64,000 nucleotides of DNA from a phage. Below, in pieces: positions 7,978-30,689 of this stretch. The stretch is from NCBI GenBank assembly GCA_024673055.1, contig GCA_024673055.1_4537.1; one strand, written 5' to 3'. The position numbers and the translations under genes are program-made. The notes beneath the pieces were generated by a model. The model was not told where the DNA came from, did no database searches, and saw only the letters and a list, made by a program, of their open reading frames with translations. The first letter of the stretch is position 1. The number at the start of each line of letters is the position of its first letter.

Positions 7978-8010
7978 GTAAGATCAAGAACAATAATAGG
8001 AGAGTGTGTT

Positions 8011-8474: not shown

Positions 8475-8484
8475 GACTAATCTG

Positions 8485-8526: not shown

Positions 8527-8556
8527 AAAGATTCACTTACTAAGGAGATTTTATAA

Positions 8557-8754: not shown

Positions 8755-8797
8755 CTAATTAGAGGGTATACTTGTAAACAAGATTAAGGAGGCATTT

Positions 8798-15496: not shown

Positions 15497-15504
15497 AACT
15501 TAAA

Positions 15505-15526
15505 GGCGCACTTTGCGCCTTTTTTG
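15505..15526 (+). terminator. Rho-independent terminator GGCGCA-CTT-TGCGCC + TTTTTTG
   Basis: Hairpin 15505-15519 followed by T-run. Confidence 0.6.
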
Positions 15527-15596
15527 ATTTTCCTCAAAGCTTTTTTCGGTTGGAAGAGGTAGAATAATAGTTCTACTCACAAAATAAGGATTAATA

Positions 15597-17411
15597 ATGA
15601 AAGATTTGTACCAAGATGTTTTTTCTTTTTTAGATCGCACTTCAGAAACATACACTAGAGAGAATGCAAACAAACCTTCCCACCTCGTTAACACGCACAG
15701 GGATCTCTTGGCGGGGATTTTAAGCAAACATATGGCAATGACACAGATACTGCCAAAAAACTTGTCAGAATGGCATACAGAAGGTTTTGGACATATTCAC
15801 GACTTGGATTATCTACTCTCTCCTCTTACAAACTGTTGTCTTGTTAATTATCAAGATATGTTAGAAAATGGTTTTAAGATCGGTGCTGCACAGATAGAAA
15901 AACCAAAATCTATTGGAGTAGCTACCACAGTGCTAACTCAAATTATCCAAGCTGTTGCCTCCAGTCAGTATGGAGGTCAGACGTGTGCGCACATTGATAA
16001 AGGTCTTAGTCCTTATGTTGAAGCTAGTTTCCTTAAAAACATGGAGATAACCAAACGTCGCTACGGTTGTTATGCAAGGAAAGAAGCCCTGGAAATGACC
16101 GAACAAGATGTATATGATGCTATGCAAACTCTCTTGTATCAGGTTAATACTTTAATGAGTGTTAATGGACAATCTCCTTTTATTACAATCAGTATGGGTC
16201 TGGATACCTCTGTTTTTGGCAGAATGATCACAGCTAATTATCTTAAAGTGCATAGTAATGGTCTAGGCAAAGATCATGTAACGCCTGTATTCCCTAAAGT
16301 TATTTTCTTTTTACAAGAAGGTGTTAACATGAAACCTAGTGATCCTAACTATGACCTTAAGCAACAAGCTTTGGCATGTTGTGCTGATCGTATTTATCCA
16401 GATTTTATTTCTGTTCCTTTGAACAAAGAAGTTACGGGATCAGCAGATGGCACTGTTACGAGTATGGGTTGTCGTTCCTTTTTGTCGTACTATGCCACCG
16501 AACAAGGAGAAAAATACGATGGACGATTCAACCTTGGAGTAGTTTCTATCAACTTACCTCTGATCGCTGCGGAAGCGAGAAGTAAAGGAGAATCTTTCAC
16601 CGATCTTCTTAATAAACATATGGAGATAGCCTACGATGCTCACATGCTACGTGTAAACCGTATCAGACATACCAAAGCATCTGAAAACCCTATTCTTTTC
16701 ATGGAAGGGGCTTTAGCGCGTTTAAATGCCAATGATGAAATTGGTGTTTTGTTTGAAGGTGGTTATGCTTCTATTAGTATTGGTTATGTAGGTCTTGCCG
16801 AAGCTTTGGAAATCCTTTATCCAGAAGAAAAAGATAAAAAGGAACTTGGTAAAAGCATTCTGCAACATATGAAAGATGTGTGTGCTGTGTTTAAAGAACG
16901 ATCTAAGCTGGCGTTTAGTCTCTATGGAACTCCAGCAGAATCCTTGTGCTATAAGTTTGCAACAGCTTTAAATGAAAAATACCCAGGTTTGGTAGAAAGA
17001 GACTATCTTACTAACTCTTTTCATCAACCTGTATGGTTGGTAACAAATCCTTTTGAAAAATGGGATTATGAAGCAGGTTTTGCACAGATTAGTAATGGTG
17101 GTAACATAAGTTATGTCGAAACACCAAACTTAAAGAATAACTTAGAAGCTTTGGAGACTTTAGTAGACTACGCTTATGAACATATTCACTATTTTGGTAT
17201 TAATCAGCCCGTGGATCAATGCTTTAAGTGTGGTTTTCATGGAGAATTTAAGGCAACGGCTAAAGGGTTTGAGTGTCCTGATTGTGGCAACCATGAAGAA
17301 GAAACTATTTCTGTAGTTAGACGTGTATCAGGGTATCTTTCTGCCCCTAATTCACGGCCTTACAACAAAGGTAAAATGCAGGAAGTTTTGCAAAGGGAGA
17401 AACATCTTTGA
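15597..17411 (+). CDS. nrdD: anaerobic ribonucleoside-triphosphate reductase (class III RNR)
   Basis: C-terminal zinc ribbon CFKCGFHG...CPDCGN and glycyl-radical motif RRVSGYL. Confidence 0.9.
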   Translation: MKDLYQDVFSFLDRTSETYTRENANKPSHLVNTHRDLLAGILSKHMAMTQILPKNLSEWHTEGFGHIHDLDYLLSPLTNCCLVNYQDMLENGFKIGAAQIEKPKSIGVATTVLTQIIQAVASSQYGGQTCAHIDKGLSPYVEASFLKNMEITKRRYGCYARKEALEMTEQDVYDAMQTLLYQVNTLMSVNGQSPFITISMGLDTSVFGRMITANYLKVHSNGLGKDHVTPVFPKVIFFLQEGVNMKPSDPNYDLKQQALACCADRIYPDFISVPLNKEVTGSADGTVTSMGCRSFLSYYATEQGEKYDGRFNLGVVSINLPLIAAEARSKGESFTDLLNKHMEIAYDAHMLRVNRIRHTKASENPILFMEGALARLNANDEIGVLFEGGYASISIGYVGLAEALEILYPEEKDKKELGKSILQHMKDVCAVFKERSKLAFSLYGTPAESLCYKFATALNEKYPGLVERDYLTNSFHQPVWLVTNPFEKWDYEAGFAQISNGGNISYVETPNLKNNLEALETLVDYAYEHIHYFGINQPVDQCFKCGFHGEFKATAKGFECPDCGNHEEETISVVRRVSGYLSAPNSRPYNKGKMQEVLQREKHL

Positions 17412-17878
17412 ATTTTGCAGGATATGAACCTGTAGATCTTATTAATGGTGAGGGAGTTAGGTGCTCCCTCTGGGTTAGTGGTTGTAGCCACGGTTGTCGT
17501 GGCTGTTTTAACCAAAAAGCCTGGTCTTATTCTTATGGGAAACCATTTACTCACGAAAATGTAGAGCAAGTTTTAAAAGATTTGTCAAGACCGTTTGTAA
17601 AAGGTTTAACAATTTTAGGAGGAGAGCCATTAGATCCGCAGAATATTTACAATGTTAAAAACCTTATAGAAAAGGTTAGAGACGTTTATGGGTCAAGCAA
17701 AGATATAATGGTGTATACAGGATATACTTTTGAGGAAGTGCCTTTGTATATTAAAAATCTTGTTGACATTATTGTAGACGGAAAGTATGAAATAAACAAT
17801 CCAACTACAAAACCTTTCAGAGGGTCAGATAATCAAAGATTATGGACCAAAACGGCAAGTGGTTGGCAATCAGATTAA
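17408..17878 (+). CDS. nrdG: anaerobic RNR activating protein (radical SAM)
   Basis: CSHGCRGCFN cysteine cluster; start overlaps nrdD stop. Confidence 0.85.
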   Translation: MNFAGYEPVDLINGEGVRCSLWVSGCSHGCRGCFNQKAWSYSYGKPFTHENVEQVLKDLSRPFVKGLTILGGEPLDPQNIYNVKNLIEKVRDVYGSSKDIMVYTGYTFEEVPLYIKNLVDIIVDGKYEINNPTTKPFRGSDNQRLWTKTASGWQSD

Positions 17879-17891
17879 CTTAGGAGGTTTC

Positions 17892-18083
17892 ATGGTTACA
17901 TATTTTGCTGTAGGAGATAGAGTAGGGACGGCAGGAGAACTTTTGAAGAACAGTGATCGGGACGTTAAGGACATTCTTGCAACCCTTGTGGATATTTTAC
18001 AAAGAAAAGAGTTGCTTTCTGATCGAGATGTTGCTAAATTACTTGATATCGGAGGAGATGAACTTCAAAGACTTCCATTTTAA
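17892..18083 (+). CDS. hypothetical small protein (63 aa)
   Basis: ATG at 17892 after TAGGAGG RBS. Confidence 0.35.
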   Translation: MVTYFAVGDRVGTAGELLKNSDRDVKDILATLVDILQRKELLSDRDVAKLLDIGGDELQRLPF

Positions 18084-18098
18084 GTGAGGAGATAAGTG

Positions 18099-18704
18099 AT
18101 GCAACATAGTGTAGTAGTTAACATGCCAAATAGCGGGGATAAATCTTTTGGTGTCCCTGCTAAAAAAGTGTGGAAAGCCCATTTTCATCTTACTTTATCT
18201 AACGTTAGTTCTGAAGAGTTGATGAAAGCAGCTAAGATTATTGGTGCCAAATGCACAACAATTGATTTACATCGGGATACAAAATCTCAACGTGATCGTA
18301 TGTTAACAAAATATCAAAGCGATCTCGACACTACTTTAATGTTGCAGTGTGTAGAAAAACTTGAGAATGCAGGTTTCAATGTTGTTCGTTACAAACTGGA
18401 ACGAATGTTTAAACATGTCGCCTGTGTTCTTTTCATGGATCTAAGTAAAGAAAATTATGGAGAAGTTCACATTAAGACTTCAGCAAGTGATCCCGAAGTA
18501 GAAACAAACTTCTTCCGTATTTCTTCTAATGCTGAAGAAATTGATTACCGATTTTATAATGCTCGCTTATATTCCGCAGAAGATAAGTTGCGTTTCAATG
18601 AAGCGTATGAGATGCTCTTGAACAGTGGGACACAGATAAAAGGCTACCACATAGAACAAGTGGTAGTGGACAGTAATCTTAATTTAGACGCATGGTGGGC
18701 TTAA
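18099..18704 (+). CDS. hypothetical protein; possible 2H-phosphoesterase-like fold
   Basis: HFHLTLS (HxTx) near N-terminus, second His-containing block GEVHIKTS; uncertain. Confidence 0.45.
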   Translation: MQHSVVVNMPNSGDKSFGVPAKKVWKAHFHLTLSNVSSEELMKAAKIIGAKCTTIDLHRDTKSQRDRMLTKYQSDLDTTLMLQCVEKLENAGFNVVRYKLERMFKHVACVLFMDLSKENYGEVHIKTSASDPEVETNFFRISSNAEEIDYRFYNARLYSAEDKLRFNEAYEMLLNSGTQIKGYHIEQVVVDSNLNLDAWWA

Positions 18705-18705
18705 T

Positions 18706-19362
18706 ATGACTATTAAACATATCTCTTTTGATGTATGGAACACACTGATCACAGCAAACTCCAATTACGCAGATATGCGAGCCTGGACTATCGCAAAATA
18801 TGGAGATATTACGGAAGTGGAAGCAAGAGCAGCTTATAAGAAGATCAAAAAGGAACTGGATAATGCAGCACTTCAAGGCAAAGCTGAGTGTGCAGCATAC
18901 GCCTGGGAAAGACTTGGTTCTGAACTTGGGATAACCCCTTGGAAGTCTGCAAAGCTTCGTTTCGAGTGTGAACAGTGGTTCCTTAAGTTTCCACCACACG
19001 TAGCCGTGGATCTGCCGATGTACTTGCTGTATCTTTCGGGACGTTATGATTTGAGTATTAAGAGCAATACCAACTTCATATCAGGAGATATCCTGCGTCG
19101 TGCTTGTAAGTTTGATAGTTGGAATTGTTTTGAGTTCACCCATTTCTCGGATGAAGCTTTACTTTGTAAACCAGATCCGCGATTCTTTGCTCGCACGCTC
19201 ACGTATTCTCCGATCCCTCTATTAGGGCACGAAGTATTGCACGTAGGCGATAGTGAAGAATACGATGGAAAATGTGTTGACTTAGGATTTAACTTCTGTC
19301 ATATTAGGAACCCTAACGACTTACTAGAGAAACTTAAAAGAGGAGAAATTGTAAATGCGTAA
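18706..19362 (+). CDS. HAD-superfamily hydrolase/phosphatase-like protein
   Basis: Motif I-like ISFDVWNTLI, motif III K-PDPRFF, motif IV HVGDSEEYD. Confidence 0.6.
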   Translation: MTIKHISFDVWNTLITANSNYADMRAWTIAKYGDITEVEARAAYKKIKKELDNAALQGKAECAAYAWERLGSELGITPWKSAKLRFECEQWFLKFPPHVAVDLPMYLLYLSGRYDLSIKSNTNFISGDILRRACKFDSWNCFEFTHFSDEALLCKPDPRFFARTLTYSPIPLLGHEVLHVGDSEEYDGKCVDLGFNFCHIRNPNDLLEKLKRGEIVNA

Positions 19363-20182
19363 TCAAACTCAAATTTTTGCAAATAAATTTGATGACCTGG
19401 AAACTGCTACTTTTGATATTAAAGATTATTCAAAATTGAAATTTGGTAGTAACCAGGCTGCGCGTCGTATGGGTAAAGAATTGGCACTTCAGTTTTTTGC
19501 TCAAGTGGCAATGAAACATATTGGGGAACAATTTGTTATAATCCCTTCTCCTTACAACCATGTGCATAATGCTGCAACAATGATGACAGATCATTTTATT
19601 AATTACTTTAATATGTTGCAATCACAATATGATCAAGGTCGTTCAGCAGAACTGGATATTATTCATCGTAAAGTTAGCTATATCAACGATTATGGTTTCT
19701 TGGATAAAGCTAGTCGTAAGAAACTTATTGATGGGGATACATTCTACTGCAACAAAGAATTCTGGGGTGATAAGAAGCTTGTGTTTATTGATGATGTAAA
19801 TATCACTGGAACTCATGAAGACAAACTGATTGAGATCCTTGATGAAAATCAAGTTAAAAATGATGTTTACTTCTTGTATTTTGCAAAATATGAAGGTAAT
19901 CAAGCAGATACCGAAGCTAAACTGAATTTTAATTATATTAATACACCAGAAGCGTTTATTAAAATGATTAATGAAGAACGTGATGCACAGTGCCTTGTTC
20001 GTCCTATTAAGTATCTTATGGGCCAAAATCACGAAGACTTCAAAATCATTCTTAGCCAATTGCCACACTACTATGTAGAGCAACTTTTCTTCGGATGTTT
20101 GGGAGAAGGTTACAACCGAATTTCAAAGTATGCTGAAAACTTTGAATTCTTGGATCGTTACACAAAACAACACATTCTGTAA
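19355..20182 (+). CDS. type I phosphoribosyltransferase-like protein
   Basis: PRPP-binding-like motif KKLVFIDDVNITGTHEDK. Confidence 0.55.
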   Translation: MRNQTQIFANKFDDLETATFDIKDYSKLKFGSNQAARRMGKELALQFFAQVAMKHIGEQFVIIPSPYNHVHNAATMMTDHFINYFNMLQSQYDQGRSAELDIIHRKVSYINDYGFLDKASRKKLIDGDTFYCNKEFWGDKKLVFIDDVNITGTHEDKLIEILDENQVKNDVYFLYFAKYEGNQADTEAKLNFNYINTPEAFIKMINEERDAQCLVRPIKYLMGQNHEDFKIILSQLPHYYVEQLFFGCLGEGYNRISKYAENFEFLDRYTKQHIL

Positions 20183-20195
20183 TAAGGAGCTAAAA

Positions 20196-20681
20196 ATGCT
20201 TAAAATGAAAACAGGTAATCTTATTGATGCCGCTAAAGCAGGTGAAGTAACTGTTATTGCTCATTGTTGCAACTGTATGTGTAATATGGGGGCAGGTATT
20301 GCCCCACAAATAAAATATGCGTTTCCATATGCATACGAAGCAGATTTAGCTACAGGAGCAGGAAACCAGAAAAAGCTTGGTTCTTTTAGTTTAGGAGAAC
20401 CAGAAGATTATCCTAATCCTATGGTATACAACCTTTATGGACAGTATCGTTATGGATACAATAGTAAAGGTCGTCAACTAGATTATGATGCACTGTATGA
20501 TGCTCTTGCAGCTATGGCAATGGACTTACACAATTACGATAAAGGAGATCAACCAGCACATAAGATTGGTCTACCTATGATTGGCGCTGGATATGCTGGA
20601 GGTAATTGGGCTATCATCCAAGTGATGATTGAAGAAACTTTAGTAAAAACAGGTCACGATGTGACTATTTATAAACTTTAA
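20196..20681 (+). CDS. macro-domain protein (ADP-ribose binding/processing)
   Basis: VIAHCCNCMCNMGAGIA and IGLPMIGAGYAGGNW resemble macro-domain Gly-rich motifs; ATG at 20196 after AAGGAG RBS. Confidence 0.6.
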   Translation: MLKMKTGNLIDAAKAGEVTVIAHCCNCMCNMGAGIAPQIKYAFPYAYEADLATGAGNQKKLGSFSLGEPEDYPNPMVYNLYGQYRYGYNSKGRQLDYDALYDALAAMAMDLHNYDKGDQPAHKIGLPMIGAGYAGGNWAIIQVMIEETLVKTGHDVTIYKL

Positions 20682-20693
20682 GAGGAGATTAGT

Positions 20694-20915
20694 ATGGGTG
20701 TTTTTGCAGGTATTGTTGCAGTGGTAAGCTTTTTTGTTATTGCTTTTATGCTTAGTTTGATTCCAGCTTGGTTACTGTTGCTGGCTTACAACTATGTTGC
20801 TGAAGTTATGGGTCATGCAGATATCACTGTCCCAGTAACCTTCTGGACCGTGGTTTGTGTTTCGTTTATTCTGGCTGTATTACGAGGAATCTTTTCCTCT
20901 CATTCAACAAAATAA
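20694..20915 (+). CDS. small membrane protein (2 predicted TM helices)
   Basis: Hydrophobic segments GIVAVVSFFVIAFMLSLIPAWLLLLAY and VTFWTVVCVSFILAVL. Confidence 0.45.
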   Translation: MGVFAGIVAVVSFFVIAFMLSLIPAWLLLLAYNYVAEVMGHADITVPVTFWTVVCVSFILAVLRGIFSSHSTK

Positions 20916-20918
20916 GTG

Positions 20919-20946
20919 TTGACATAGTTCTTAAAAAGAGTAAGAT
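20919..20946 (+). promoter_or_regulatory. sigma70-like promoter TTGACA-16-TAAGAT upstream of terC; 5'UTR hairpin GCGGGGA-ATAGT-TCCCCGC at 20959-20977
   Basis: Direct reading. Confidence 0.45.
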
Positions 20947-20994
20947 ATATCACATGAAGCGGGGAATAGTTCCCCGCAAAGAGAGGAGAAAAGA

Positions 20995-21969
20995 ATGCAA
21001 CTTGGTTTCCCAATTATTGATGTAGTTGTTTTAGTTGGTATTTTGGCATTGTCTATTGGTATCGATTTCTTTGGTCATAAAGAGAATAAAGAAATTGGAA
21101 TTAAATCTGCTTTGCTTTGGTCTGTTTTTTGGATTGCTTTAGCTTTAGGATATTACGCATTCATTTGGGTAGAACATGGTAAAGAGTTTGCCGCGCTTTT
21201 CCTAAGTGGCTATGTGTTGGAAAAGAGTCTTTCTGTAGATAACCTGATGGTGTTCATGGCAATTTTTGCAAGCTTTGGAATTAAGAGCACACATCTCCAA
21301 CATAAGATTTTACTTTGGGGGATTGCAGGAGCCATTGTCTTCCGAGGTATTTTTGTTGCAGCAGGGACCGCTTTGTTTAACCTTCATTGGTCGGTCCAAG
21401 TGTTGTTCGGTTTGATTGTAGCTTGGTCTGCCGTGGCTATCATCAAAGGTGGTGACGAAGAAGAGGATATTGATTACTCTAAGCATTGGGCTGTTCGTTT
21501 AGTAGGTAAAGTTCTGCCTGTGCACAATGCACTGGATGGTGAAAAGTTCATCACCATTAAGAATGGTATTAAATATGCAACTCCTGCTCTTCTTTGTGTG
21601 TTTGTTATTGAGCTTACAGATATTGTCTTCTCTTTTGATTCAGTTCCGGCTGTGATCGGTGTGACACAAGAACCTCTGCTAGTTTATTCTGCAATGCTGA
21701 TGGCTGTTCTTGGTTTACGTGCACTTTTCTTTGTGTTAAGTGTGGCTGTGAAATATCTGGTTCACTTAGAGAAAGCTGTTGCTGTGGTTCTGGTGTTTGT
21801 CGGTGCTAAACTTATGTATCACCCGTTCGGTGAAACACTTCATGCCAAATGGTCATTCCTCCCGCATGATATTTCCCCTAACGTAAGTCTGATGATTGTT
21901 CTAGGCACATTAGCTCTTGGTGTTATTGCAAGTTTTATCTTCCCTGAAAAAGAAGAAGCTGCTGTTTAA
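20995..21969 (+). CDS. terC: TerC-family integral membrane protein
   Basis: Multiple TM segments; EKSLSVDNLMVF and ELTDIVFSFDSVPAVIGVT match TerC signature blocks. Confidence 0.75.
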   Translation: MQLGFPIIDVVVLVGILALSIGIDFFGHKENKEIGIKSALLWSVFWIALALGYYAFIWVEHGKEFAALFLSGYVLEKSLSVDNLMVFMAIFASFGIKSTHLQHKILLWGIAGAIVFRGIFVAAGTALFNLHWSVQVLFGLIVAWSAVAIIKGGDEEEDIDYSKHWAVRLVGKVLPVHNALDGEKFITIKNGIKYATPALLCVFVIELTDIVFSFDSVPAVIGVTQEPLLVYSAMLMAVLGLRALFFVLSVAVKYLVHLEKAVAVVLVFVGAKLMYHPFGETLHAKWSFLPHDISPNVSLMIVLGTLALGVIASFIFPEKEEAAV

Positions 21970-21975
21970 TAGATG

Positions 21976-22000
21976 AGCCTCCTTCGGGAGGCTATTTTAT
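21976..22000 (+). terminator. Rho-independent terminator AGCCTCC-TTCG-GGAGGCT + ATTTTAT
   Basis: Hairpin directly after terC stop. Confidence 0.55.
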
Positions 22001-22011
22001 AGGAGAGACTT

Positions 22012-22362
22012 ATGAATAATTTTGATGAAATTCAAGAACTTATTTGGGATTTATCTGGTGATGTGGATTACGTTTTAGATTATCTTTCAAAAGTTTACCC
22101 TGGGGTAAGCGTTATGATTGTGACCAAAGATCCAATTAATTTGCCTCCTAATGTTGTAGCTTGTTGTGGAAGTGGTTCAGGAGAAGTAGAGCCTGTATCT
22201 CGTTGGGAATTAACTAAAGCTGTTTCAAAACGAAACGGTGAAGTTTTGAATATTGATATCGAACAAATATGGACTTCTCCAGCAGCCAAATGGAACGATC
22301 CAAATGGTTGGGATTTGTTCTTCTGGGATAATGAAACTGATGATGAGGTATTTTTAAAATGA
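22012..22362 (+). CDS. hypothetical protein (116 aa)
   Basis: ORF with RBS. Confidence 0.5.
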   Translation: MNNFDEIQELIWDLSGDVDYVLDYLSKVYPGVSVMIVTKDPINLPPNVVACCGSGSGEVEPVSRWELTKAVSKRNGEVLNIDIEQIWTSPAAKWNDPNGWDLFFWDNETDDEVFLK

Positions 22363-22530
22363 AATACTTGTTGGTTGTGTTTGAAAATATCTGTTTTGCA
22401 ATAGGGTTGTTTGTTGTAATTTTTGTATTGACAAGCGTAATCAACGGCAGTAAAGTGAGTTTATACCGAGATGGAGAGCAACTTTATTGCTTCTCTGGAG
22501 ATTTCAAACATAGATGTATTAATAGTCAAA

Positions 22531-22983
22531 ATGAGGAAAGCAAATATGAAAAAACTAGCCCTGATTTTAATTGGTTGTATCTTTTTAACAGCTTGCGAGG
22601 ATGAAACAAATCCTGCACAATACCAACAACCTCCTCAACAATACGCTCAACAAGGATCTGACGGAGATACAACTATTATCAACAATGGTGGCGGTTCTAG
22701 TAGTAGCGGTGTTGGTGAGTTTGCTACAGGTATGTTGTTAGGGCATATGATGAGTGGTGGTAGTAATCGTAACAGTGGAGATTATAACGATAACAGAACG
22801 ATTATTAATAAGCATTATAATACACCTAAACCGAAAACTAATTTTTATGGTAAGCCTAAACAAGAGATAAAAACTTATGAAAAGCCGAGACAAACTTTTA
22901 AAACAAATAGTAGCTATACAACTCGTAAATCTTACAATAGCCCTTTAAGTAAAAAGAGTTCATCTCGTAGCAAGCGACGTTAA
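22531..22983 (+). CDS. putative lipoprotein (Gly/Ser/Asn-rich, basic C-terminus)
   Basis: Signal peptide with lipobox LTAC; start may be 22531 or 22546. Confidence 0.5.
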   Translation: MRKANMKKLALILIGCIFLTACEDETNPAQYQQPPQQYAQQGSDGDTTIINNGGGSSSSGVGEFATGMLLGHMMSGGSNRNSGDYNDNRTIINKHYNTPKPKTNFYGKPKQEIKTYEKPRQTFKTNSSYTTRKSYNSPLSKKSSSRSKRR

Positions 22984-22997
22984 TAAGGAGAAAAACA

Positions 22998-23591
22998 ATG
23001 ACAATTTCTATTCGTACTTCCATTACAGGTGTTAAAAGTTTGCCTAATGCTTTGCAAATCACACGTGCTTTGAGGGATACGTTCTCTGCTGTGGATGAGC
23101 ATAAGATGCTCGATAATCTCTCAAATTGGCCCTATTTTCATTATTTTAAAAACGAAGACGACGAGTTTATAGACGCTGTTTCTTACGGTTATGATTTCGG
23201 TAAGGAAGTTTCCCCTGAAGAATTTGTAGCTACTGTGTTCCCAAACGGTTTGCCTACTCGCAGTAAACGTAAAAAAGGACCAAAAAACAAGAAACGTGCT
23301 ACTAATAAAGCTACCATTTTCTTTACTGATGGCACACAATATACGATTAAAGATTTTGAAGAGGTATCTTATACAGCAGGTGGGAGTCTTTCTTTCTACA
23401 CCATCAAAAAACAAAACTATACGTTCAGCCATGTTTCTAACATGATTGAAATGTTAGTAGAAGATATTGAAAGCGTGGCTGTGTTAGGTATGCATAAAAG
23501 CTTTTTAATTACAAATATTTCAGATTTCAGTGCAAGTTTATCTGGCCCTGATTTTGAAGCCACGACCACGTATTTCGCTTTTAAGGTGTAA
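22998..23591 (+). CDS. hypothetical protein (197 aa)
   Basis: ORF with AAGGAG RBS. Confidence 0.5.
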   Translation: MTISIRTSITGVKSLPNALQITRALRDTFSAVDEHKMLDNLSNWPYFHYFKNEDDEFIDAVSYGYDFGKEVSPEEFVATVFPNGLPTRSKRKKGPKNKKRATNKATIFFTDGTQYTIKDFEEVSYTAGGSLSFYTIKKQNYTFSHVSNMIEMLVEDIESVAVLGMHKSFLITNISDFSASLSGPDFEATTTYFAFKV

Positions 23592-23594
23592 GTT

Positions 23595-24185
23595 ATGCAT
23601 ACCGAGAGAGACTTGCAACTCTTGTGGTGGGAAGTGATGCAGGAAATAAAAGAAGATTTTCCTGTTTACTACAACATGTTACGTGAAGCAGGATATAAAG
23701 CTTGTGTTAGAAACAAAGTGAATAACTCTTTCGGTTGGTGCAACTACCGAGATAAAATTGTTGTTGTAAATTGGCACTTGCATAAGAACTCCACAAGAGA
23801 TATGATCGTGGATACAATGAAGCACGAAATTGCTCATGCTATTGATGGTTGTATGGGTAAGTTTAGTAGGCACGGTGCTCATTGGCAAAAACTGGCAGCA
23901 GAATTAGGGGCTAATCCTAAAGCCACTTCCAAAGAGCCGTTGAACCACGAATATAAATATGTTCTTGTTCTGGTAGATAGGTTTGCGACAAGATGTGTTA
24001 GAGGTTATAATCGTAAACCTAATCGCATGTACCCAGGTAAGCAACCTAATATGTGGTTGAAATCAGATAAAGAAGGGACCGAAGGAAAATTATGGTTGTA
24101 TAAATGGGACGATTGGGTTAAAGTAGCTAAAGAGTACGGTGTTTCACCATATATAAGAGATGCAGAAGAGGAGAATGAAGAATGA
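23595..24185 (+). CDS. SprT-like zinc metallopeptidase
   Basis: HEIAHAIDG (HExxH) followed by HGAHWQKLAAELG, as in SprT-like proteins. Confidence 0.55.
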   Translation: MHTERDLQLLWWEVMQEIKEDFPVYYNMLREAGYKACVRNKVNNSFGWCNYRDKIVVVNWHLHKNSTRDMIVDTMKHEIAHAIDGCMGKFSRHGAHWQKLAAELGANPKATSKEPLNHEYKYVLVLVDRFATRCVRGYNRKPNRMYPGKQPNMWLKSDKEGTEGKLWLYKWDDWVKVAKEYGVSPYIRDAEEENEE

Positions 24186-25294
24186 CAAGTCCATTTTTAA
24201 AAGCAGCTACTGGTGGTCAGAAGAAGCCTGAAATGAGCGTATTTGCTGCAACAACAGATGCAAGTAAATCTGTATTCGCTCCAAGCGTGTTAGATGCCAG
24301 TCCTGTTTATGCACCAGCGGCACCGCAAGAAGTTCCAGTTTTGCCTTCTATGACCCGACAAGAGATTGAAGAGATTGGGGCAGAGGCAGGAACAACCTTG
24401 CGTTCCTTGAATGCCGAGGTGTTAAAACATCAACGTAGTAATCAAGGCGATCAGATGAGTGAACGACTCACAGCTTTGATTAAACAGGCAAAACAACTTG
24501 ATCCAAACTCTATTAAACAAAGCAAGGGTATTACTAAACTCATTAAAAAAGTTATGGGTATGAAAGAAGACCTGTTCGGGGAGTTTGATAATGTTAATAA
24601 CCGTATTGAAGAGTTGGTAAAGAACCTTCAAATGGATATTCGCAAAGAAGAAGATTCCTTAGTATATCTTGAAAAGCTACATCAAGCTATTGGACAATAT
24701 GCTGCAAGTTTGAACCGAGATATGCAGCTTCTAACAGCAACCTATGAAAAAGAAGAACAAGCTTTGGCTGCTCTTCCAGAAGATGCAGTAGAACAGCGAC
24801 AAGTGATCCGAGATACTTTGGATCTTCTGGAGATTCGTATTGCAGATTTAAAAGCATTGCGCCTACTGTGTGTCCAAATGGGACCGCGTGTACAAGGTAT
24901 GCAAAAAGTTTCTGCAAGCTTAATGCGATCTGCGCGTAACATAGTAAATAATGTTATTCCTGCTTACTCTGCTAACTTCTCAATGTATATCGAGAGCTTA
25001 CGTCAAATGAAAGCAGCAGAGACGCAGAATAACGTTCTTGATGAATTTAACCTGGCAATTAAACTGGGTAGCGATCTTGCCACACAGAATCAGATCGAAG
25101 CAGCAGCACTGGCTAACCGTCAAGTGTTGGATATTGAAACTCTGCGTCACGATCAGGAAAACTTGGTTAAGATGTTGGAAGAAACTAACCGCATCAATAC
25201 GGAAGCCCGTGCTGCTCGTGTTGATTATATTAATGAAGTTCAGTCTCTGGAAGACGGGATGGTAGCTGCTGTGAAACGAGGGCTTGGTAAATGA
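24182..25294 (+). CDS. coiled-coil protein, possibly TelA-like toxic-anion-resistance family
   Basis: 370-aa helical protein inside a Ter-like gene neighbourhood; family assignment by size and context only. Confidence 0.4.
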   Translation: MTSPFLKAATGGQKKPEMSVFAATTDASKSVFAPSVLDASPVYAPAAPQEVPVLPSMTRQEIEEIGAEAGTTLRSLNAEVLKHQRSNQGDQMSERLTALIKQAKQLDPNSIKQSKGITKLIKKVMGMKEDLFGEFDNVNNRIEELVKNLQMDIRKEEDSLVYLEKLHQAIGQYAASLNRDMQLLTATYEKEEQALAALPEDAVEQRQVIRDTLDLLEIRIADLKALRLLCVQMGPRVQGMQKVSASLMRSARNIVNNVIPAYSANFSMYIESLRQMKAAETQNNVLDEFNLAIKLGSDLATQNQIEAAALANRQVLDIETLRHDQENLVKMLEETNRINTEARAARVDYINEVQSLEDGMVAAVKRGLGK

Positions 25295-25488
25295 GAATCC
25301 GTATCTATATAATTGATGAGGACATTGGTGTCCGTTATGATGACGAAAAACGATTCGCACCGATGGGAGGCATATATCCCCCAAGTGTTCTAGCAGTTTG
25401 TCGTGATTGTTATATTTATGAAGGTTGTCGTAACTTCCGTAAATTCGAACTCCTTGCAGATATTGACTTCAATGAGGAGGAGGAGTAA
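25291..25488 (+). CDS. small Cys-containing protein (65 aa)
   Basis: ORF, CRDCYIYEGC. Confidence 0.4.
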   Translation: MRIRIYIIDEDIGVRYDDEKRFAPMGGIYPPSVLAVCRDCYIYEGCRNFRKFELLADIDFNEEEE

Positions 25489-25661
25489 TGAAAATATTAC
25501 GAGTGAATATTGAAACTGCTTGGTGTGGATGCAATGAGGTTGTGGATATCGAAATTGAAGATGATATGTCTCAAGAGGATATAGAAGATCTTGCACACGA
25601 AACCTTTCAGGATTATTGTAATTACGGGTTCCATATTTTAGAGGAGGAAGAAGATGTATAA
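25488..25661 (+). CDS. hypothetical small acidic protein (57 aa), not in ORF track
   Basis: ATG overlapping previous stop (TAATG); GGAGGAGG RBS. Confidence 0.3.
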   Translation: MKILRVNIETAWCGCNEVVDIEIEDDMSQEDIEDLAHETFQDYCNYGFHILEEEEDV

Positions 25662-26052
25662 TCCAACAGGTATTCTTTTAAAACTTACAGTAACAGACCC
25701 TACTCTTTTCACTAAGTTAGCAAGTGGTGAAGTTTATGAAGTAATGAAAGATGATGACGGTTGGTGTTATCTTTGTGGCTACTTCCTCTGTGATGCAGAA
25801 GAGTTAGAATCCATTGTAACTAAAGGTTTTTATGAAGAACCAGGGTTCCGTGTGGAAACTACGCAGAAACCTGATACCATTACGTTGACTCGACAGGAAC
25901 TGATCACAATCATTGAAGATGCTTTTATTGATGGCTGGAATACACAAGATAATGACTGGGGTGGACCCGAAGCTTTTCTGGAACATCATAAAGCTTATGG
26001 AGAATTTTGTGAAACCACTGTAGCTCTTGATAATCTGAAGGAGGGTTTGTAA
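25654..26052 (+). CDS. hypothetical protein (132 aa)
   Basis: ORF with RBS. Confidence 0.45.
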   Translation: MYNPTGILLKLTVTDPTLFTKLASGEVYEVMKDDDGWCYLCGYFLCDAEELESIVTKGFYEEPGFRVETTQKPDTITLTRQELITIIEDAFIDGWNTQDNDWGGPEAFLEHHKAYGEFCETTVALDNLKEGL

Positions 26053-26615
26053 TGGGTTGTTTTAGCTTTTTGTGCAAAGAATCGGGCAAAGCTGCCCTTT
26101 CTACTTCTTTCGACGGATCACCTTGCTACCTCTTTCTTTTGAAGGACGGTGTTGTTATTGAAGAGATGTATGGCAACTATGATAGTTATGGTTGTGTTTT
26201 CTCTGGAAAGGAGGATGAAAATGGTGTTCGTGAACGATTTGAATGGGCTATGGATTGGAGTAAGGTTTGTGATTTGATGCATTCCTCAAATCCAAGGGAC
26301 GGTATCGCTATGGTGCTGGAAGAGTACTTTACAGGTGAAATCCCTACAGAACAATCTGACGGAGATCCTAACCAAGGTTGGGGTGATGGTGAAGAAGATC
26401 CAGATTGTTTTTTCAGCACAGAAAAGAATAAGTTTAAACGTGTTGACAACCCTTATCACAAAGTGCATAATACTCTCATTGAAACAGAAGATGACAAGAT
26501 GGAAATTGAAGAAGATGATCCTCTTGTAACACTTCCTATAAGTGAGTTACAAAAGATCACTAAGGAAGCTTACGATTTGGGCTTCAAAATTGGTAGAGGA
26601 GGTATGCGTGTTTAG
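26052..26615 (+). CDS. hypothetical acidic protein (187 aa)
   Basis: ORF with RBS. Confidence 0.45.
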   Translation: MGCFSFLCKESGKAALSTSFDGSPCYLFLLKDGVVIEEMYGNYDSYGCVFSGKEDENGVRERFEWAMDWSKVCDLMHSSNPRDGIAMVLEEYFTGEIPTEQSDGDPNQGWGDGEEDPDCFFSTEKNKFKRVDNPYHKVHNTLIETEDDKMEIEEDDPLVTLPISELQKITKEAYDLGFKIGRGGMRV

Positions 26616-26886
26616 ATTCAATATTCAAGAAGAAAAAAGTCAAGATTTACCTATTGCTTTCGAAGATCTTGACGTAGGGGCAACATTCATGTATTATGAT
26701 GCCTATGAAGACGCAGGGTTGGATACCTACCGTAACTTGGTGTTCATTAAAAATTCCACAAACAGTGCGATTTGTATTAATGGATCACTAGCACAACGAG
26801 GCTATACTCATTGCATCCCACCAGATACAAATATGGTGGAAGTAGATTTAGAAGTTACCAATATTACACTTAAGAAGGAGAAATAA
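26608..26886 (+). CDS. small protein, paralog A of 27908-28177
   Basis: GTG start after AGGAGG; shares (I/F)xDLDVG(A/D)TF(M/V)Y...GLD...EV(D/E)L(E/T)VT(N/G)ITLK with 27908-28177. Confidence 0.45.
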   Translation: MFRFNIQEEKSQDLPIAFEDLDVGATFMYYDAYEDAGLDTYRNLVFIKNSTNSAICINGSLAQRGYTHCIPPDTNMVEVDLEVTNITLKKEK

Positions 26887-26887
26887 T

Positions 26888-27682
26888 ATGTCCGAGAAAA
26901 TCAGCCTGAAAAAACGTCAAGAAAACCTTGCTTTCTCTCTGAAAAAGAATAAGAACCTGAATGAAGGTAAGATTGTTCTTCGTGTAGCATGTGCTCTAGA
27001 TATTTCTGGTAGTATGCATGGTCTATATTCTAGTGGGGTAGTGAGTGATTTTGTAGGTAAACTGCTTCCTTTTGGTATGCTGTTCGACGATAATCAACAA
27101 ATTGATATGTGGGCCTTCAATACGAGTTCCCAAGAGCTTACTCCAGCAACAGCAGACGTTTACGATGACTATGTTGGTAAATGTATGCGTAATGTTCGTA
27201 TCGGAGGTGGAACAAATTACGCCCCTGTAATGGCAGATATCTACGATGAGTATTTTGGCACTGTTACCAAATATATTACCACTAAACAAGTGGTACAAGA
27301 GGAGGCTCCAAAGAAAGGCTTCTTTAATCGTCTGCTTGGTAAAACTGAAACAGTGTCTGTAGAGCGTGAAAAAGTTGTAGCTGTATCTGAACCAGGTGCT
27401 GACGTTACCCCTGGTGTTGTATTCTTCCAGACGGATGGTGAGAATGGTGATCCTAGTGCTGTTCGTCGTCTTATTGAAGAGAATAAGAATAAACCTATTT
27501 ATTGGTTCATGGTTGGCGTTGGTAATGAGAAGTTTGGCTTCCTGAAAGAACTGGCAAATGCTTATGATAATGTTGGTTTTATTGGCATTAAAGATTTAGA
27601 CTTGACAGATTCAGAGCTTTATGACAAACTCTTATCTGAAGAGTTCGGAGAGTGGGTTGTTAAAGTAGGTGCTAAAAAATGA
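26888..27682 (+). CDS. von Willebrand factor A (vWA) domain protein, TerY-like, with TerD-like N-terminal leader
   Basis: MIDAS motifs DISGSM, GGTN, QTDGE; N-terminus KISLKK...SLKK resembles TerD N-terminus. Confidence 0.7.
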   Translation: MSEKISLKKRQENLAFSLKKNKNLNEGKIVLRVACALDISGSMHGLYSSGVVSDFVGKLLPFGMLFDDNQQIDMWAFNTSSQELTPATADVYDDYVGKCMRNVRIGGGTNYAPVMADIYDEYFGTVTKYITTKQVVQEEAPKKGFFNRLLGKTETVSVEREKVVAVSEPGADVTPGVVFFQTDGENGDPSAVRRLIEENKNKPIYWFMVGVGNEKFGFLKELANAYDNVGFIGIKDLDLTDSELYDKLLSEEFGEWVVKVGAKK

Positions 27683-27927
27683 TCGACGAGCTTGCCTCTC
27701 AAGTCATAGAAAATTATTGGCGCGAGAGAGAAGCTTTCATTATGCGCAGTCTCAAAGAGTATTTCATTGGGACTGTGCGAATGGAAGATATTGTAAGTAG
27801 AGTAGAGATTCATGTATGGCCCGATTATGAAGAATGGGTTGACAAAGAAAATGAAAATGCTATAATTCTTCGTATATACAAACCGGAGATAACATTAGGA
27901 GGAAGAAGTGTTAAACTTCGAAATTGA
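27679..27927 (+). CDS. hypothetical protein (82 aa)
   Basis: ORF, start overlaps previous stop. Confidence 0.4.
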   Translation: MIDELASQVIENYWREREAFIMRSLKEYFIGTVRMEDIVSRVEIHVWPDYEEWVDKENENAIILRIYKPEITLGGRSVKLRN

Positions 27928-28177
27928 TGAGCAAAAAGTAAATAAACGATGTCTTACCATTAAAGATTTGGATGTAGGAGATACTTTCGTCTATGAAAAT
28001 GCATTTGACGAAAATGGTTTAGACCTTAGTGAAATCATTGTTTATTTAAAAGTAGATGATGGGGAAAATGATTGTTCTGCTGTAGAACTAAACCATCATG
28101 CACAATTAGTATCAATCCAAAACACATCCAAGCTTTTGGAAGTAGAATTGACTGTAACTGGTATTACACTTAAATAA
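27908..28177 (+). CDS. small protein, paralog B of 26608-26886
   Basis: See 26608-26886. Confidence 0.45.
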   Translation: MLNFEIDEQKVNKRCLTIKDLDVGDTFVYENAFDENGLDLSEIIVYLKVDDGENDCSAVELNHHAQLVSIQNTSKLLEVELTVTGITLK

Positions 28178-28192
28178 TAGAGGAGACAAAAG

Positions 28193-28795
28193 ATGACTGA
28201 TAAAATTTCCCTGAAAAAAGGCTCTAGCGAAAAAATTTCCCTGAAGAAAGTTGCTCCGGCTCTGAAAGAACTGCGCCTGGAATTCTCTTGGAAATCTGAT
28301 TCTAAACTGGATCTGGATGTAAGTGCACTGGTTTGTCGTCACAATGCCACTGGCAATCCTGAAATGCTGTCTGCACGTCACCTGGTTTGCTATGCTAACA
28401 AGTTTGATCCTGAACGTTCTACCTTCGCTGGTGACGATGTTCGTGATGGAACTGGCAGCATGGAGCAGATTGATATTACTCTGGCTAAAATCTCTCCTGA
28501 TGCACAAGAGATTGCCTTTGTTCTGACCATTGATGATGATACAGGTCTGAAACGTTTTGGTCATGCTTCTGAAGGTATGCTTAAAATCTTTGACTCCGAG
28601 CGCAATGTTGAAATTCTGGATTTTGACTTCCTGGCTCCTGAAGTAGCTGGCAACACAATCTGCCACGTGGCTTCCTTGGTTCGTGAAGATGGGGAATGGA
28701 AGCTGAAAGCATATGGTGTAGGTAAAGCTGGTCTGGATATTTGTGATGTGGTGATGGCCTTCGGTGGTAAAAAAGAATGGTATGAATGTCCATAA
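28193..28795 (+). CDS. terD: TerD-family protein
   Basis: Duplicated KISLKK leader, DLDVSAL, AGDDVRDGTGS, AFVLTIDDD, DGEWKLKAYGVG align to TerD-family blocks; CTG/CGT/GGT-dominated codon usage. Confidence 0.8.
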   Translation: MTDKISLKKGSSEKISLKKVAPALKELRLEFSWKSDSKLDLDVSALVCRHNATGNPEMLSARHLVCYANKFDPERSTFAGDDVRDGTGSMEQIDITLAKISPDAQEIAFVLTIDDDTGLKRFGHASEGMLKIFDSERNVEILDFDFLAPEVAGNTICHVASLVREDGEWKLKAYGVGKAGLDICDVVMAFGGKKEWYECP

Positions 28796-28813
28796 TAATT
28801 AACAAATGATTTT

Positions 28814-28836
28814 GAGGGGGAGAAATCCCCCTCTTG
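28814..28836 (+). terminator. Rho-independent terminator GAGGGGG-AGAAAT-CCCCCTC
   Basis: Hairpin after terD stop; T-run weak. Confidence 0.5.
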
Positions 28837-28862
28837 CAATAAAGCCTCTATCGTGTTATACT
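28834..28862 (+). promoter_or_regulatory. sigma70-like promoter TTGCAA-17-TATACT
   Basis: Direct reading upstream of the 28895 gene. Confidence 0.45.
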
Positions 28863-28894
28863 AGAAATTCGTTAACTTAAAAAGGAGGCAAAAT

Positions 28895-29416
28895 TTGCTG
28901 ATAAAAAACTTTGTAACAGTTGCGTTACTATCCTTAACTGCTTTTACATTTACACCTGTTGTGGCGAAAGCCGAAGCTGCAAACGTAAAAACCGCTAAAG
29001 TAGTTCACAAATGTACAAAGCAATATAATGATAAAATTCTATTAGCTTGTGCAATTTACGCAGAAGGTCGCGGTCTGGGTAAAAAAGGAATGAATGCCGT
29101 TGGGAATGTGGTAATCAACAGAAGAAATGATACCTACTTCCCTAACACAGTCAGAGGAGTCTTGTTCCAGAAAGGACAATTCTCATATGCGAAAACTTTT
29201 AACGTAACAGAGAAAGATAAGTGGCAGGAAGCAAAAGCAATAGCGGAGCGTTTACTTTATCTAGAGAAACATTTTCCTGAATTGCGGTCTGTTTTAGATG
29301 TTACTAAAGGTGCTCTATACTTCAAGAAACGGAATATAAAGACACACTGGGAACGTGATATGCGTCTTGTTTATCGAGATAAAGTGCATGGTTTCTATCT
29401 ACCAAAGGGGAGTTAA
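28895..29416 (+). CDS. SleB-like cell-wall hydrolase with signal peptide (candidate endolysin)
   Basis: AIYAEGRG...MNAVGNVVINR...FPNTVRGVLFQKGQFSY matches the SleB/Hydrolase_2 pattern; TTG start. Confidence 0.65.
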   Translation: MLIKNFVTVALLSLTAFTFTPVVAKAEAANVKTAKVVHKCTKQYNDKILLACAIYAEGRGLGKKGMNAVGNVVINRRNDTYFPNTVRGVLFQKGQFSYAKTFNVTEKDKWQEAKAIAERLLYLEKHFPELRSVLDVTKGALYFKKRNIKTHWERDMRLVYRDKVHGFYLPKGS

Positions 29417-29417
29417 A

Positions 29418-29702
29418 ATGCAAGAAGATAATACTGTTGTTGTAGCAAGTTACCTGGTTGTCGGTCTTACCGAAGAGGATGTATACTACACCCGTAAGCA
29501 TTTAGAAGCATACGCTACTTTGTTTATGGAAGATGAAAAGGATGTAGATAAATATAGCATTGATATGATCAACGACAGTATTTATCCTTGTATGGTTCTT
29601 AAAGTAGATGCTGTGTTGTGGGAGCGTTTTGCAAGGACTCATGATGCTGTAGAATGCTCCGCAGTAATGTCTCAAAACAACATTTTAGGGGAGATTCATT
29701 GA
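29418..29702 (+). CDS. hypothetical protein (94 aa)
   Basis: ATG at 29418 (track ORF starts upstream at 29355). Confidence 0.4.
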   Translation: MQEDNTVVVASYLVVGLTEEDVYYTRKHLEAYATLFMEDEKDVDKYSIDMINDSIYPCMVLKVDAVLWERFARTHDAVECSAVMSQNNILGEIH

Positions 29703-29932
29703 TGGGAGAAGTCATTGAAGTCAATTTTCGCACTAAACAGAAAGTGCAAAAATATGTCGTTATTAAAAACATTTGCGTTGTCTGCTTCAATACAGTAATA
29801 TACGACTCACGACGCGGAGAAAACGAAAATGAACCTTACATTGAAATTTCTAAGAACAAAGGTCAATGTATTTGTAAGAACTGTGCAGTAGCTATTAAGG
29901 AGGTTGTAAATGAAAACGCTTGGGACCAATGA
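29702..29932 (+). CDS. small Cys-containing protein (76 aa)
   Basis: ATG overlapping previous stop (TGATG); CVVCF...CICKNC. Confidence 0.4.
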   Translation: MGEVIEVNFRTKQKVQKYVVIKNICVVCFNTVIYDSRRGENENEPYIEISKNKGQCICKNCAVAIKEVVNENAWDQ

Positions 29933-30101
29933 AACTGGCGAAATCTCTCTTCAAGAAGTGACAAACGACAAACTGATTAAGCTACGAGACGTAGCTCGTG
30001 ACCATCTTCAAGAATCTTTTAAAGAATACATGGAAGCACGAGATCGTGTCATCCAAATCCAACAGGAAATGATTAAACGCGGGATTGTAGCCGACAGTTA
30101 A
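29910..30101 (+). CDS. hypothetical protein (63 aa)
   Basis: ORF. Confidence 0.35.
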   Translation: MKTLGTNETGEISLQEVTNDKLIKLRDVARDHLQESFKEYMEARDRVIQIQQEMIKRGIVADS

Positions 30102-30117
30102 TATAACGGAGGGGAGA

Positions 30118-30681
30118 ATGATTTATTATATTACTCCCTATCTGACAGGAAATATCGGCAAGGCTATCAATGAAGCCATTGCCGTTCTTCCAGATGATAG
30201 TTGGGTGTGTTTAAGAGATACCGATACAATGTTCCTCCTACCTGATCAACCATCTATGCTTGAAGAGCTTGTTATGTCAAACCCGCCTTTTGATGTAATA
30301 GGTGCAACTTGTAACAGGTTAGGCAGTGGTTATCAGCTTTTCTCTAACCAAATTAACGATGATCCAGATATTCTAAACCATATAGAATATGCTAAGATTG
30401 CAAAAGAATATCATAAAGTGAGTGTTGAAGAAGTTCCTTTCGGAACACCTCTGGCAGGTTTCTTTTTGCTTTTTAGAAAATCATTGTGGAATGAAATTCC
30501 TTTCGAAGAAAAATCTATCCAATTCGACTTAATTTTCTCTCGCACTTTACATGAAAAAGGAAAGAGGTTAGGATTGATGCGGGGAATGTATCTGTTTCAC
30601 ATTTACAGATTAGGTCAAACAAATCCTCAACGGTCTATACATCATTTATTACACTGTCACGATCACAGTAAAACTATTTAG
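30118..30681 (+). CDS. hypothetical protein, possibly glycosyltransferase-like
   Basis: LRDTDTMF (DxD-like); weak. Confidence 0.4.
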   Translation: MIYYITPYLTGNIGKAINEAIAVLPDDSWVCLRDTDTMFLLPDQPSMLEELVMSNPPFDVIGATCNRLGSGYQLFSNQINDDPDILNHIEYAKIAKEYHKVSVEEVPFGTPLAGFFLLFRKSLWNEIPFEEKSIQFDLIFSRTLHEKGKRLGLMRGMYLFHIYRLGQTNPQRSIHHLLHCHDHSKTI

Positions 30682-30689
30682 GAGAGAAA

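Follow-up and report, generated by a model that had tools for sequence, protein, structure and literature searches.

We analyzed a 64,000-nucleotide stretch of phage DNA (GenBank assembly GCA_024673055.1, contig GCA_024673055.1_4537.1; hereafter the window, positions 1–64000), concentrating on a 10.7-kb block at 18096–28795 that encodes members of the protein families of bacterial tellurite-resistance (Ter) stress-response loci. An earlier annotation made from the letters alone, referred to here as the original prediction, had singled out this block as a Ter-like gene set. Megablast of positions 18000–29500 retrieved 63 phage records at ≥80% query cover and 95–99% identity, including phAPEC8, ZCKP1, ESCO13 and the 'anhysbys' group, which identifies the window as Phapecoctavirus (Stephanstirmvirinae); a further 69 records, including phi92-like Justusliebigvirus and Klebsiella phages, matched at 60–80%. 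The phage is a virulent, non-jumbo E. coli myovirus of ~150 kb belonging to the phAPEC8 group. Every gene between 15.6 and 32 kb is on the plus strand, as are the promoter-like sites and hairpins described below.

Core Ter proteins encoded by the block

Our Pfam scan covered 30 open reading frames (ORFs) between 14150 and 32310. The gene at 20995..21969 encodes an integral membrane protein of the TerC/Alx subfamily, which matched PF03741 with an E-value of 3e-40 and was also recognized by NCBIfam and PHROG models. Its score against NCBIfam TIGR03718, 'TerC/Alx metal homeostasis membrane protein', exceeds the curated cutoff (319 bits vs 246), and we regard the protein as a putative divalent-metal exporter. 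The gene at 28193..28795 encodes a TerD-domain protein (PF02342, E 2.9e-28) that aligns with the solved Klebsiella TerD structure, 2kxt, over 179 residues (E 2.5e-15) and keeps the first calcium motif (DLD, within LDLDVS); whole-window hidden Markov model scans found one TerD-domain protein only. The 370-aa coiled-coil protein encoded at 24182..25294, tentatively called TelA-like before, is indeed a TelA-family member (PF05816, E 3.2e-33), with the match spanning profile positions 13–327 of 332.

The protein encoded at 26888..27682 is vWA-TerF-like (PF10138, E 1.6e-37). It has a complete metal-ion-dependent adhesion site (MIDAS), DISGS...GGGT...TDG, in which the DxSxS, T and D residues are all present. 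A profile scan found no TerD domain in this protein, and PADLOC gave no TerY-P match for it. The vWA and TerD proteins have a common N-terminal start, M-[ST]-[DE]-KISLKK; the vWA protein with its MIDAS motif and TerD-like KISLKK leader had thus been read correctly from the sequence, as had TerC and TerD. All these identities rest on Pfam, NCBIfam, PHROG and PDB matches with E-values far beyond chance and, together with the Phapecoctavirus assignment, they bear out the earlier claim that this virulent myovirus does carry a Ter gene set. PADLOC gave no defence-system match for TerC, TelA, the vWA protein, TerD or the phosphoribosyltransferase described next.

A HAD-phosphoribosyltransferase pair and neighbouring enzymes

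Upstream of TerC, the gene at 18706..19362 encodes a HAD-superfamily hydrolase (REG-2-like, family IA), and the gene at 19355..20182 encodes a type I phosphoribosyltransferase (PRTase) of the Ter-associated PRTase_3 family (PF15610, E 7e-42). The Pfam match of the HAD protein is weak (4e-4, below cutoff); its assignment is secured by matches to PHROG 14393 ('hydrolase') and to the NCBIfam REG-2-like model (2.4e-8), and by conservation of catalytic motifs I–IV among 33 homologues. The phosphoribosyl pyrophosphate (PRPP) loop of the PRTase reads FIDDVNITGTH, with residues D146, D147, T151, G152 and T153 invariant across 20 homologues, and the protein had no match to any curated salvage-enzyme model in NCBIfam. 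The invariant PRPP loop, the conserved HAD motifs and the complete MIDAS of the vWA protein support the predicted catalytic competence of this gene set.

A macro domain resembling the TARG1/SCO6735/DarG type is encoded directly downstream, at 20208..20681. Its Pfam match (3.6e-4) is just below cutoff; the assignment as a macro domain is secured by a match to the solved macrodomain 5e3b (4e-12), together with matches to TARG1 (6e-5) and to DarG models (~1e-8). The DarG matches nevertheless reach 33 bits against an equivalog cutoff of 250, and the DarG C-terminal domain is absent. Judging from these resemblances, the domain could reverse ADP-ribosylation by DarT-type defence toxins. The macro gene is conserved in phi92; elsewhere it does not consistently adjoin the HAD-PRTase pair. 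All three upstream enzymes had been anticipated and all were found, with the amendments that the PRTase belongs to PF15610, not PF00156, and that HAD and macro are sub-threshold in Pfam.

Translationally coupled to the HAD gene is a gene at 18096..18704 for a 202-aa protein (phrog_22504), with invariant residues H29/H31/T33 and H125/K127. It is confined to phapecoctavirus-like loci, always just upstream of HAD, and is missing from phi92. An exhaustive profile search showed that domains of this type are fused elsewhere to nucleotide hydrolases: NUDIX (three times), HD_4 and Ham1. The 202-aa protein probably belongs to the biosynthetic module as a nucleotide-linked accessory enzyme or domain, and plausibly adds a nucleotide-handling step. 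An AlphaFold2 model (predicted local distance difference test score, pLDDT, 80.5) had no convincing match in PDB, and we rejected assignment as a 2H phosphoesterase, as the protein did not show two HxT/S motifs on a LigT-like fold. Separately, the protein matches two PADLOC 'AbiEi' models over nearly its full length (E 7e-13), with no Pfam AbiEi family match.

Association of the HAD-PRTase_3 pair with Ter genes at other loci

We compared the locus with 37 other PRTase_3 loci: phi92, two metagenomic contigs, 16 IMG/VR loci, three further phage records and 15 loci from bacterial assemblies. The viral sample consisted of 22 loci, taken with 10-kb flanks. In 37/37 loci the gene immediately upstream of PRTase_3, in the same orientation, encodes a HAD protein. 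Genes for TerC, TerD, TelA or vWA-TerF occur within the flanks at 6/6 Stephanstirmvirinae loci and at 7/16 other viral loci, the latter in four different gene orders: TerC-X-TerD-Y-vWA-HAD-PRT, TelA-vWA...HAD-PRT-TerD, TelA-HAD-PRT-vWA...TerD and TerC...vWA-TerD-TerD...TelA-HAD-PRT. Compact sets of TerC, TerD, vWA, HAD and PRTase_3 are carried by many viral contigs, confirming that the combination recurs in viruses. At two Bacteroidota genome loci, TerD paralogues adjoin the HAD-PRTase_3 pair. One Bacteroidota locus, which includes two OmpA-domain envelope proteins, reads TerD-TerD-OmpA-HAD-PRTase_3-OmpA/TolB-TerC, in agreement with the earlier statement that the block mirrors bacterial Ter loci and their linked phosphoribosyl-metabolite genes. 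Repeated association in shuffled order is a classical signature of functional linkage, from which we infer a core consisting of the HAD-PRTase_3 pair with TerD, vWA-TerF, TelA and TerC. We also asked whether the 'X' (~400 aa) and 'Y' (300–390 aa) proteins encoded in the compact viral clusters might stand in for TelA; hhalign gave a weak match for X (E 4e-4, probability 35%) and no support for Y.

Comparison with phi92 and the other loci upheld the association of the core genes and showed the accessory genes to be variable. Identity to phi92 is 81% for TerD, 78.5% for TelA, 71% for TerC, 66.5% for the vWA protein and 66% for the PRTase, as compared with 78–81% for the neighbouring NrdD and 69% for NrdG. 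The Ter proteins are conserved at the level of these neighbours, which we take as evidence of selection. Missing from phi92 are the 202-aa gene, ORF 22012–22362, the SprT-like gene, 25291–25661, 27679–27927 and the second of two phrog_11278 copies (see below). The original prediction had listed all members of the block as one Ter set. This holds for TerC, TelA, vWA, TerD, HAD and PRTase; the SprT-like protein, a 187-aa protein and probably the macro domain are not Ter-specific. By this comparison the SprT-like protein, the 187-aa protein and several small ORFs appear to be lineage-specific or unrelated insertions outside the core.

At two distant loci (L005, 5862–6425; L007, 13029–14612) the HAD-PRTase_3 pair is within a few kb of NAD-related genes, which encode a nicotinamide mononucleotide (NMN) adenylyltransferase/NUDIX protein, a PnuC-like NMN transporter and an AAA_28 NadR-like kinase. 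Neighbours of this kind hint at a pyridine base as a possible substrate of the PRTase.

Predicted transcription units

The block had been described as one operon. We identified a sigma-70-like promoter for TerC at 20919..20946 (TTGACA-16-TAAGAT), a second at 26443..26471 (TTGACA-17-CATAAT) before a small-gene/vWA cassette, and a perfect-consensus sigma-70 promoter with an extended -10 TG at 27839..27866 (TTGACA-16-TATAAT) before a small-gene/TerD cassette. A terminator scan scored an intrinsic-terminator-like hairpin after TerC (21976..21993). A G+C-rich hairpin follows TerD (28814..28833) and overlaps the next promoter-like site; a terminator is annotated there in vB_EcoM_ASO2A, and phi92 has an equivalent hairpin. 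Promoter-like sites occur in phi92 at the same three relative positions, with identical hexamers at the site equivalent to 26443..26471, as does a terminator after TerD. We argue that the three promoters are real because their positions are conserved across genera. With promoters predicted at these sites, the block is not one operon and would instead comprise several transcription units.

The 5' untranslated region of TerC contains a simple hairpin (20959–20977). We rejected an Mn2+ (yybP-ykoY) or other riboswitch before TerC, since a search of Rfam gave nothing at E ≤ 1 across 14000–32000 and the region holds this hairpin only.

Proposed function

Ter genes occur widely among pathogens; their association with resistance to tellurite, colicins and phages goes back more than 40 years, without a mechanism. 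TerD binds Ca2+, TerC/Alx proteins export Mn2+, and TelA and TerF-type vWA proteins have been proposed as sub-membrane components; cells with plasmid ter operons inhibit phages and resist pore-forming colicins. The reading we favor, to which we give about an even chance of being right, is that the block represents the bacterial Ter stress-response system in phage-borne form, with unrelated accessory genes scattered through it, and would provide early envelope protection or superinfection exclusion. Host RNA polymerase would transcribe the block early, using several sigma-70-like promoters. Since type I PRTases attach a base to PRPP and HAD enzymes cleave phosphoesters, the HAD-PRTase pair should yield a nucleoside-like product: PRTase_3 would join some base to PRPP, and HAD would then convert the product to a nucleoside-like small molecule, with the 202-aa His-motif protein and the macro domain possibly adding steps in this phage. 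TerD, the vWA protein and TelA would form an assembly on the inner side of the cytoplasmic membrane, and TerC, through divalent-metal export, would join two small membrane proteins and a lipoprotein in altering the state of the envelope. The infected cell would then withstand further attacks on its membrane, with pore-forming colicins, lysis from without and competing phages injecting their DNA as candidates.

Several observations weigh against a role in envelope protection or exclusion, or against parts of the scheme. The HAD-PRTase pair stands without nearby Ter genes at 9 viral and 12 rhizobial loci, the latter including plasmid pRL10, where it is near repA. In favor of a link, at least two of the phages with a lone pair, RHph_TM21B and CcrColossus, nevertheless encode vWA-TerF elsewhere in the genome. 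None of the 30 ORFs scanned between 14150 and 32310 had a Pfam match to TerB; TerB is not universal in Ter loci, so its absence does not exclude membership. The second calcium motif of TerD reads GDDVRDGTGSMEQ, having lost the GDGDDE acidic run, and is degenerate (GTGSMEQ). Residue D+2 of HAD motif I is a Trp conserved among the 33 homologues in place of the usual Asp, so simple phosphatase chemistry is not assured. The promoter-like sites are consensus matches only, and their total number is not above shuffled expectation. No experimental work on a phage Ter gene turned up in our literature search. To our knowledge, the biochemical role of Ter proteins has yet to be settled even in bacteria, and the superinfection exclusion systems that we know of in virulent phages take just one or two small proteins.

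A more specific proposal, which we consider doubtful, is that the four adjacent enzymes (the 202-aa protein, HAD, PRTase_3 and macro) form a short pathway to a new ribosyl metabolite, a ligand that would switch the TerD/vWA/TelA/TerC membrane machinery. If this were so, the phage would offer a complete, genetically tractable signal-plus-effector Ter circuit that could reveal what Ter systems sense and do.

The alternative that survives best, though we judge it rather unlikely, is that the Ter proteins serve the phage's own infection cycle, stabilising the membrane and the Mn2+/Ca2+ balance so as to prolong productive infection or blunt abortive-infection effectors that act by depolarising or permeabilising the membrane, a form of counter-defence. 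Membership of TerC in the Alx metal-homeostasis subfamily and the calcium-binding fold of TerD would suit such a role, as would promoter-like sites suggestive of early expression and the high conservation across two genera. The neighbouring macro domain resembles the antitoxin domain of DarG, so counter-defence genes may be enriched nearby. However, the lack of any PADLOC match for TerC, TelA, vWA, TerD or PRTase gives no tie to a specific host defence system, the obligatory HAD-PRTase partnership is left unexplained, and the recorded phenotypes of bacterial ter operons are of the exclusion type.

We also consider it unlikely that the 10.7-kb block is a mosaic, in which a nucleotide- or NAD-related pair (HAD-PRTase_3, with macro and the 202-aa protein) goes with NrdD/NrdG, next to separate Ter 'morons' and unrelated small genes. 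The division of the block by several promoters and terminators is consistent with a mosaic, as is the absence from phi92 of the SprT-like gene, the 202-aa gene, the second phrog_11278 copy and other ORFs, and the occurrence of phrog_14928, the family of the 187-aa protein, in unrelated contexts. Lone HAD-PRTase pairs elsewhere neighbour a gene for thymidine kinase, dihydrofolate reductase, an NMN adenylyltransferase/NUDIX protein or a PnuC-like transporter; on a rhizobial plasmid the pair is close to repA. A mosaic has difficulty, however, in explaining without a functional tie why HAD-PRTase_3 adjoins TerD, vWA, TelA or TerC in at least 5 independent arrangements in viruses and Bacteroidota. 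Pairing a nucleotide-forming enzyme with a hydrolase is also unsuited to salvage, and PRTase_3 matches no curated salvage-enzyme model. Resistance of the infected host to tellurite or another xenobiotic is very improbable as the selected function: the names given to these families and the phenotype historically recorded for plasmid ter operons point to it, and tolerance during pseudolysogeny has been raised as a side possibility (Iyer et al., 2021; PMC7824862), but a virulent phage destroys its host in a single cycle, the gut and sewage where these phages live rarely contain tellurite, and the cluster has neither TerB nor the TerZ/A/E paralogues of the resistance operon.

Several relatives in public records were isolated on E. 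coli K-12 MG1655. A compact Ter set in virulent K-12-infecting phages, with separate promoters and an obligatory HAD-PRTase partner, is convenient for deletion and expression work. If the favored reading of superinfection exclusion or membrane protection is true, it would matter for the design of phage cocktails, phapecoctaviruses being common therapeutic candidates.

Relationship to known systems

The block resembles bacterial Ter loci, such as terZABCDEF of IncHI2 plasmids and E. coli O157 or yceCDEFGH of B. subtilis, in combining TerC, TerD, TelA, TerF-type vWA, PRTase_3 and HAD families. A Ter-linked PRTase/HAD biosynthetic module was reportedly described by Anantharaman and colleagues in 2012. 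By contrast with the bacterial loci, the block has no TerB and one TerD-domain protein instead of several paralogues, its vWA protein is without the N-terminal TerD domain of bacterial TerF, the ATP-grasp and lyase components of the larger biosynthetic module are missing, and the cluster is in a virulent phage with predicted phage-style early promoters. It therefore differs from the enterobacterial terZABCDEF operon, in which several TerD paralogues (TerZ, A, D, E, F) occur with TerB and TerC in one operon. The classical superinfection-exclusion genes of virulent phages, T4 Imm/Sp and T5 Llp, are similar in specifying early membrane or lipoprotein products, which shield a cell that is already infected, since the block includes a lipoprotein and two small membrane proteins that are probably expressed early; they differ in having no sequence relationship to the block, and the Ter set is far larger and includes enzymes.

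The original prediction presented the block as an undescribed phage system, which it is not. GenBank records of near-identical phages already use the names TelA-like, TerC, tellurite resistance, VWA and stress protein. The gp172, gp173 and gp178 proteins of phi92 have been listed as TerD/tellurite-resistance proteins (Zschach et al., 2015), and four tellurite-resistance-related genes were reported in phapecoctavirus ZCKP1, with protection from colicins and superinfection proposed (Taha et al., 2018; PMC6141743). Complete Ter systems of phages, in which PRTase and HAD are the 'signal biosynthesis' enzymes, have been described in jumbo phages as well as in some smaller tailed phages related to them, with Acinetobacter phage vB_AbaM_ME3 and Caulobacter jumbo phages as examples (Iyer, Anantharaman, Krishnan, Burroughs and Aravind, 2021; Viruses 13:63; PMC7824862). 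An envelope-protection or exclusion role has therefore already been proposed for phage Ter genes by both Taha et al. (2018) and Iyer et al. (2021).

The systems of Iyer et al. (2021) have the same parts list (PRTase, HAD, TerD, TerC, TerF-type vWA and TelA) and the same proposed anti-superinfection role, and Caulobacter and Brevundimonas phages encode homologous PRTase_3, HAD, TelA and vWA proteins. The ME3 PRTase was not retrieved by our PRTase homology search, and the likeness to the vB_AbaM_ME3 system is by component list. The present locus differs in being in a ~150-kb non-jumbo E. coli myovirus, and in its 10.7-kb spread, inserted accessory genes, duplicated phrog_11278 and separate promoters. 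Phapecoctavirus phAPEC8 and ZCKP1 have essentially the same DNA (96–98.5% identity), and Justusliebigvirus phi92 has the same gene order; however, the annotations of these three phages do not link the HAD-PRTase pair, the vWA protein or the promoters to Ter, and many records list most of the genes as hypothetical. The system is thus already known in kind, and our additions are comparative only: the invariant HAD-PRTase_3 pairing, the division into core and accessory genes, the conserved promoter positions, the duplicated small-gene cassette, and the fusions of the 202-aa-type domain to nucleotide hydrolases.

Accessory genes and flanking regions

Four membrane or lipoprotein genes make up the envelope-related part of the block, a bias that speaks for the favored reading: TerC; a 73-aa hydrophobic (membrane) protein encoded just upstream of it (20694..20915); an 81-aa single-pass membrane protein (22359..22604); and a lipoprotein with Gln/Gly-rich and basic regions (22533 or 22546..22983). 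The 73-aa and 81-aa proteins are conserved in phi92, and the lipoprotein has the phi92 homologue gp180. The lipoprotein, correctly recognized before, has the lipobox LTAC preceded by MKKLALILIGCIF. The SprT-like zinc metallopeptidase encoded at 23595..24185 (E 4.2e-9, HEIAH motif), likewise called before, is a lineage-specific insertion that is absent from phi92.

The 187-aa protein encoded at 26052..26615 (phrog_14928) is 76% conserved in phi92. Structure prediction, one of the follow-ups that had been suggested for the uncharacterised ORFs, gave a confident model of this protein (pLDDT 87) with no match among solved structures. We rejected phrog_14928 as a new Ter-specific partner; its N-terminal 135-aa domain is widespread, occurring in replication/RNA-repair-like contexts of unrelated phage contigs. 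The two copies of phrog_11278 are paralogues with ~35% identity, each directly 5' of the gene for a 'KISLKK' protein: a 92-aa protein (26608..26886) precedes vWA, and an 89-aa protein (27908..28177), absent from phi92, precedes TerD. They have DLDVG and ITLK motifs in common with TerD, but hhalign probability was <1% against both TerD and vWA alignments, and we rejected the possibility that they are degenerate TerD fragments. Atd1, an anti-TIR-STING gene reported for Phapecoctavirus, was considered as a member of the block and rejected, as there is no MazG-like pyrophosphatase gene in 18096–28795; in the original report, Atd1 is said to be a MazG-like pyrophosphatase.

The block had been placed between replication genes. 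Its flanks are instead the nucleotide-metabolism genes NrdD/NrdG upstream and a SleB-like hydrolase followed by glycosyltransferases downstream. GC content is uniform over the block and its flanks (0.37–0.40), and there is no compositional sign of recent acquisition. GC skew across the window turns from negative to positive at ~6 kb and returns to negative after 42 kb, a pattern that would fit coding-strand switches; our check of gene strand covered 14–32 kb. ARAGORN detected no tRNA gene in the window, although tRNA clusters are present elsewhere in relatives. NrdD (15597–17411) is a single uninterrupted 604-aa ORF in the window, and phi92 NrdD (7218–9296 of the compared locus) is annotated as an interrupted gene, with two pieces joined by splicing. 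The SleB-like cell-wall hydrolase (28895–29416), annotated as 'endolysin' in relatives, has a hydrophobic signal-like N-terminal segment, MLIKNFVTVALLSLTAFTFTPVVAKA, pointing to export through either a signal peptide or signal-arrest-release. Three or more glycosyltransferase-like genes follow in a run (30118–32310 and beyond), one of which (30690–31373) weakly matches the TET-associated glycosyltransferase family PF20691 (E 0.0012); this run raises the question of DNA versus cell-surface sugar modification. Lastly, records labelled 'Campylobacter phage' B15, A150 and C3 and 'Acinetobacter phage vB_AbaM_ABPW7' are 97–98.5% identical to E. coli phapecoctaviruses, and a 'Proteobacteria bacterium' metagenome-assembled genome contig bears a 100% identical PRTase; these odd labels likely reflect host mislabelling, or phage contigs binned into metagenome-assembled genomes.

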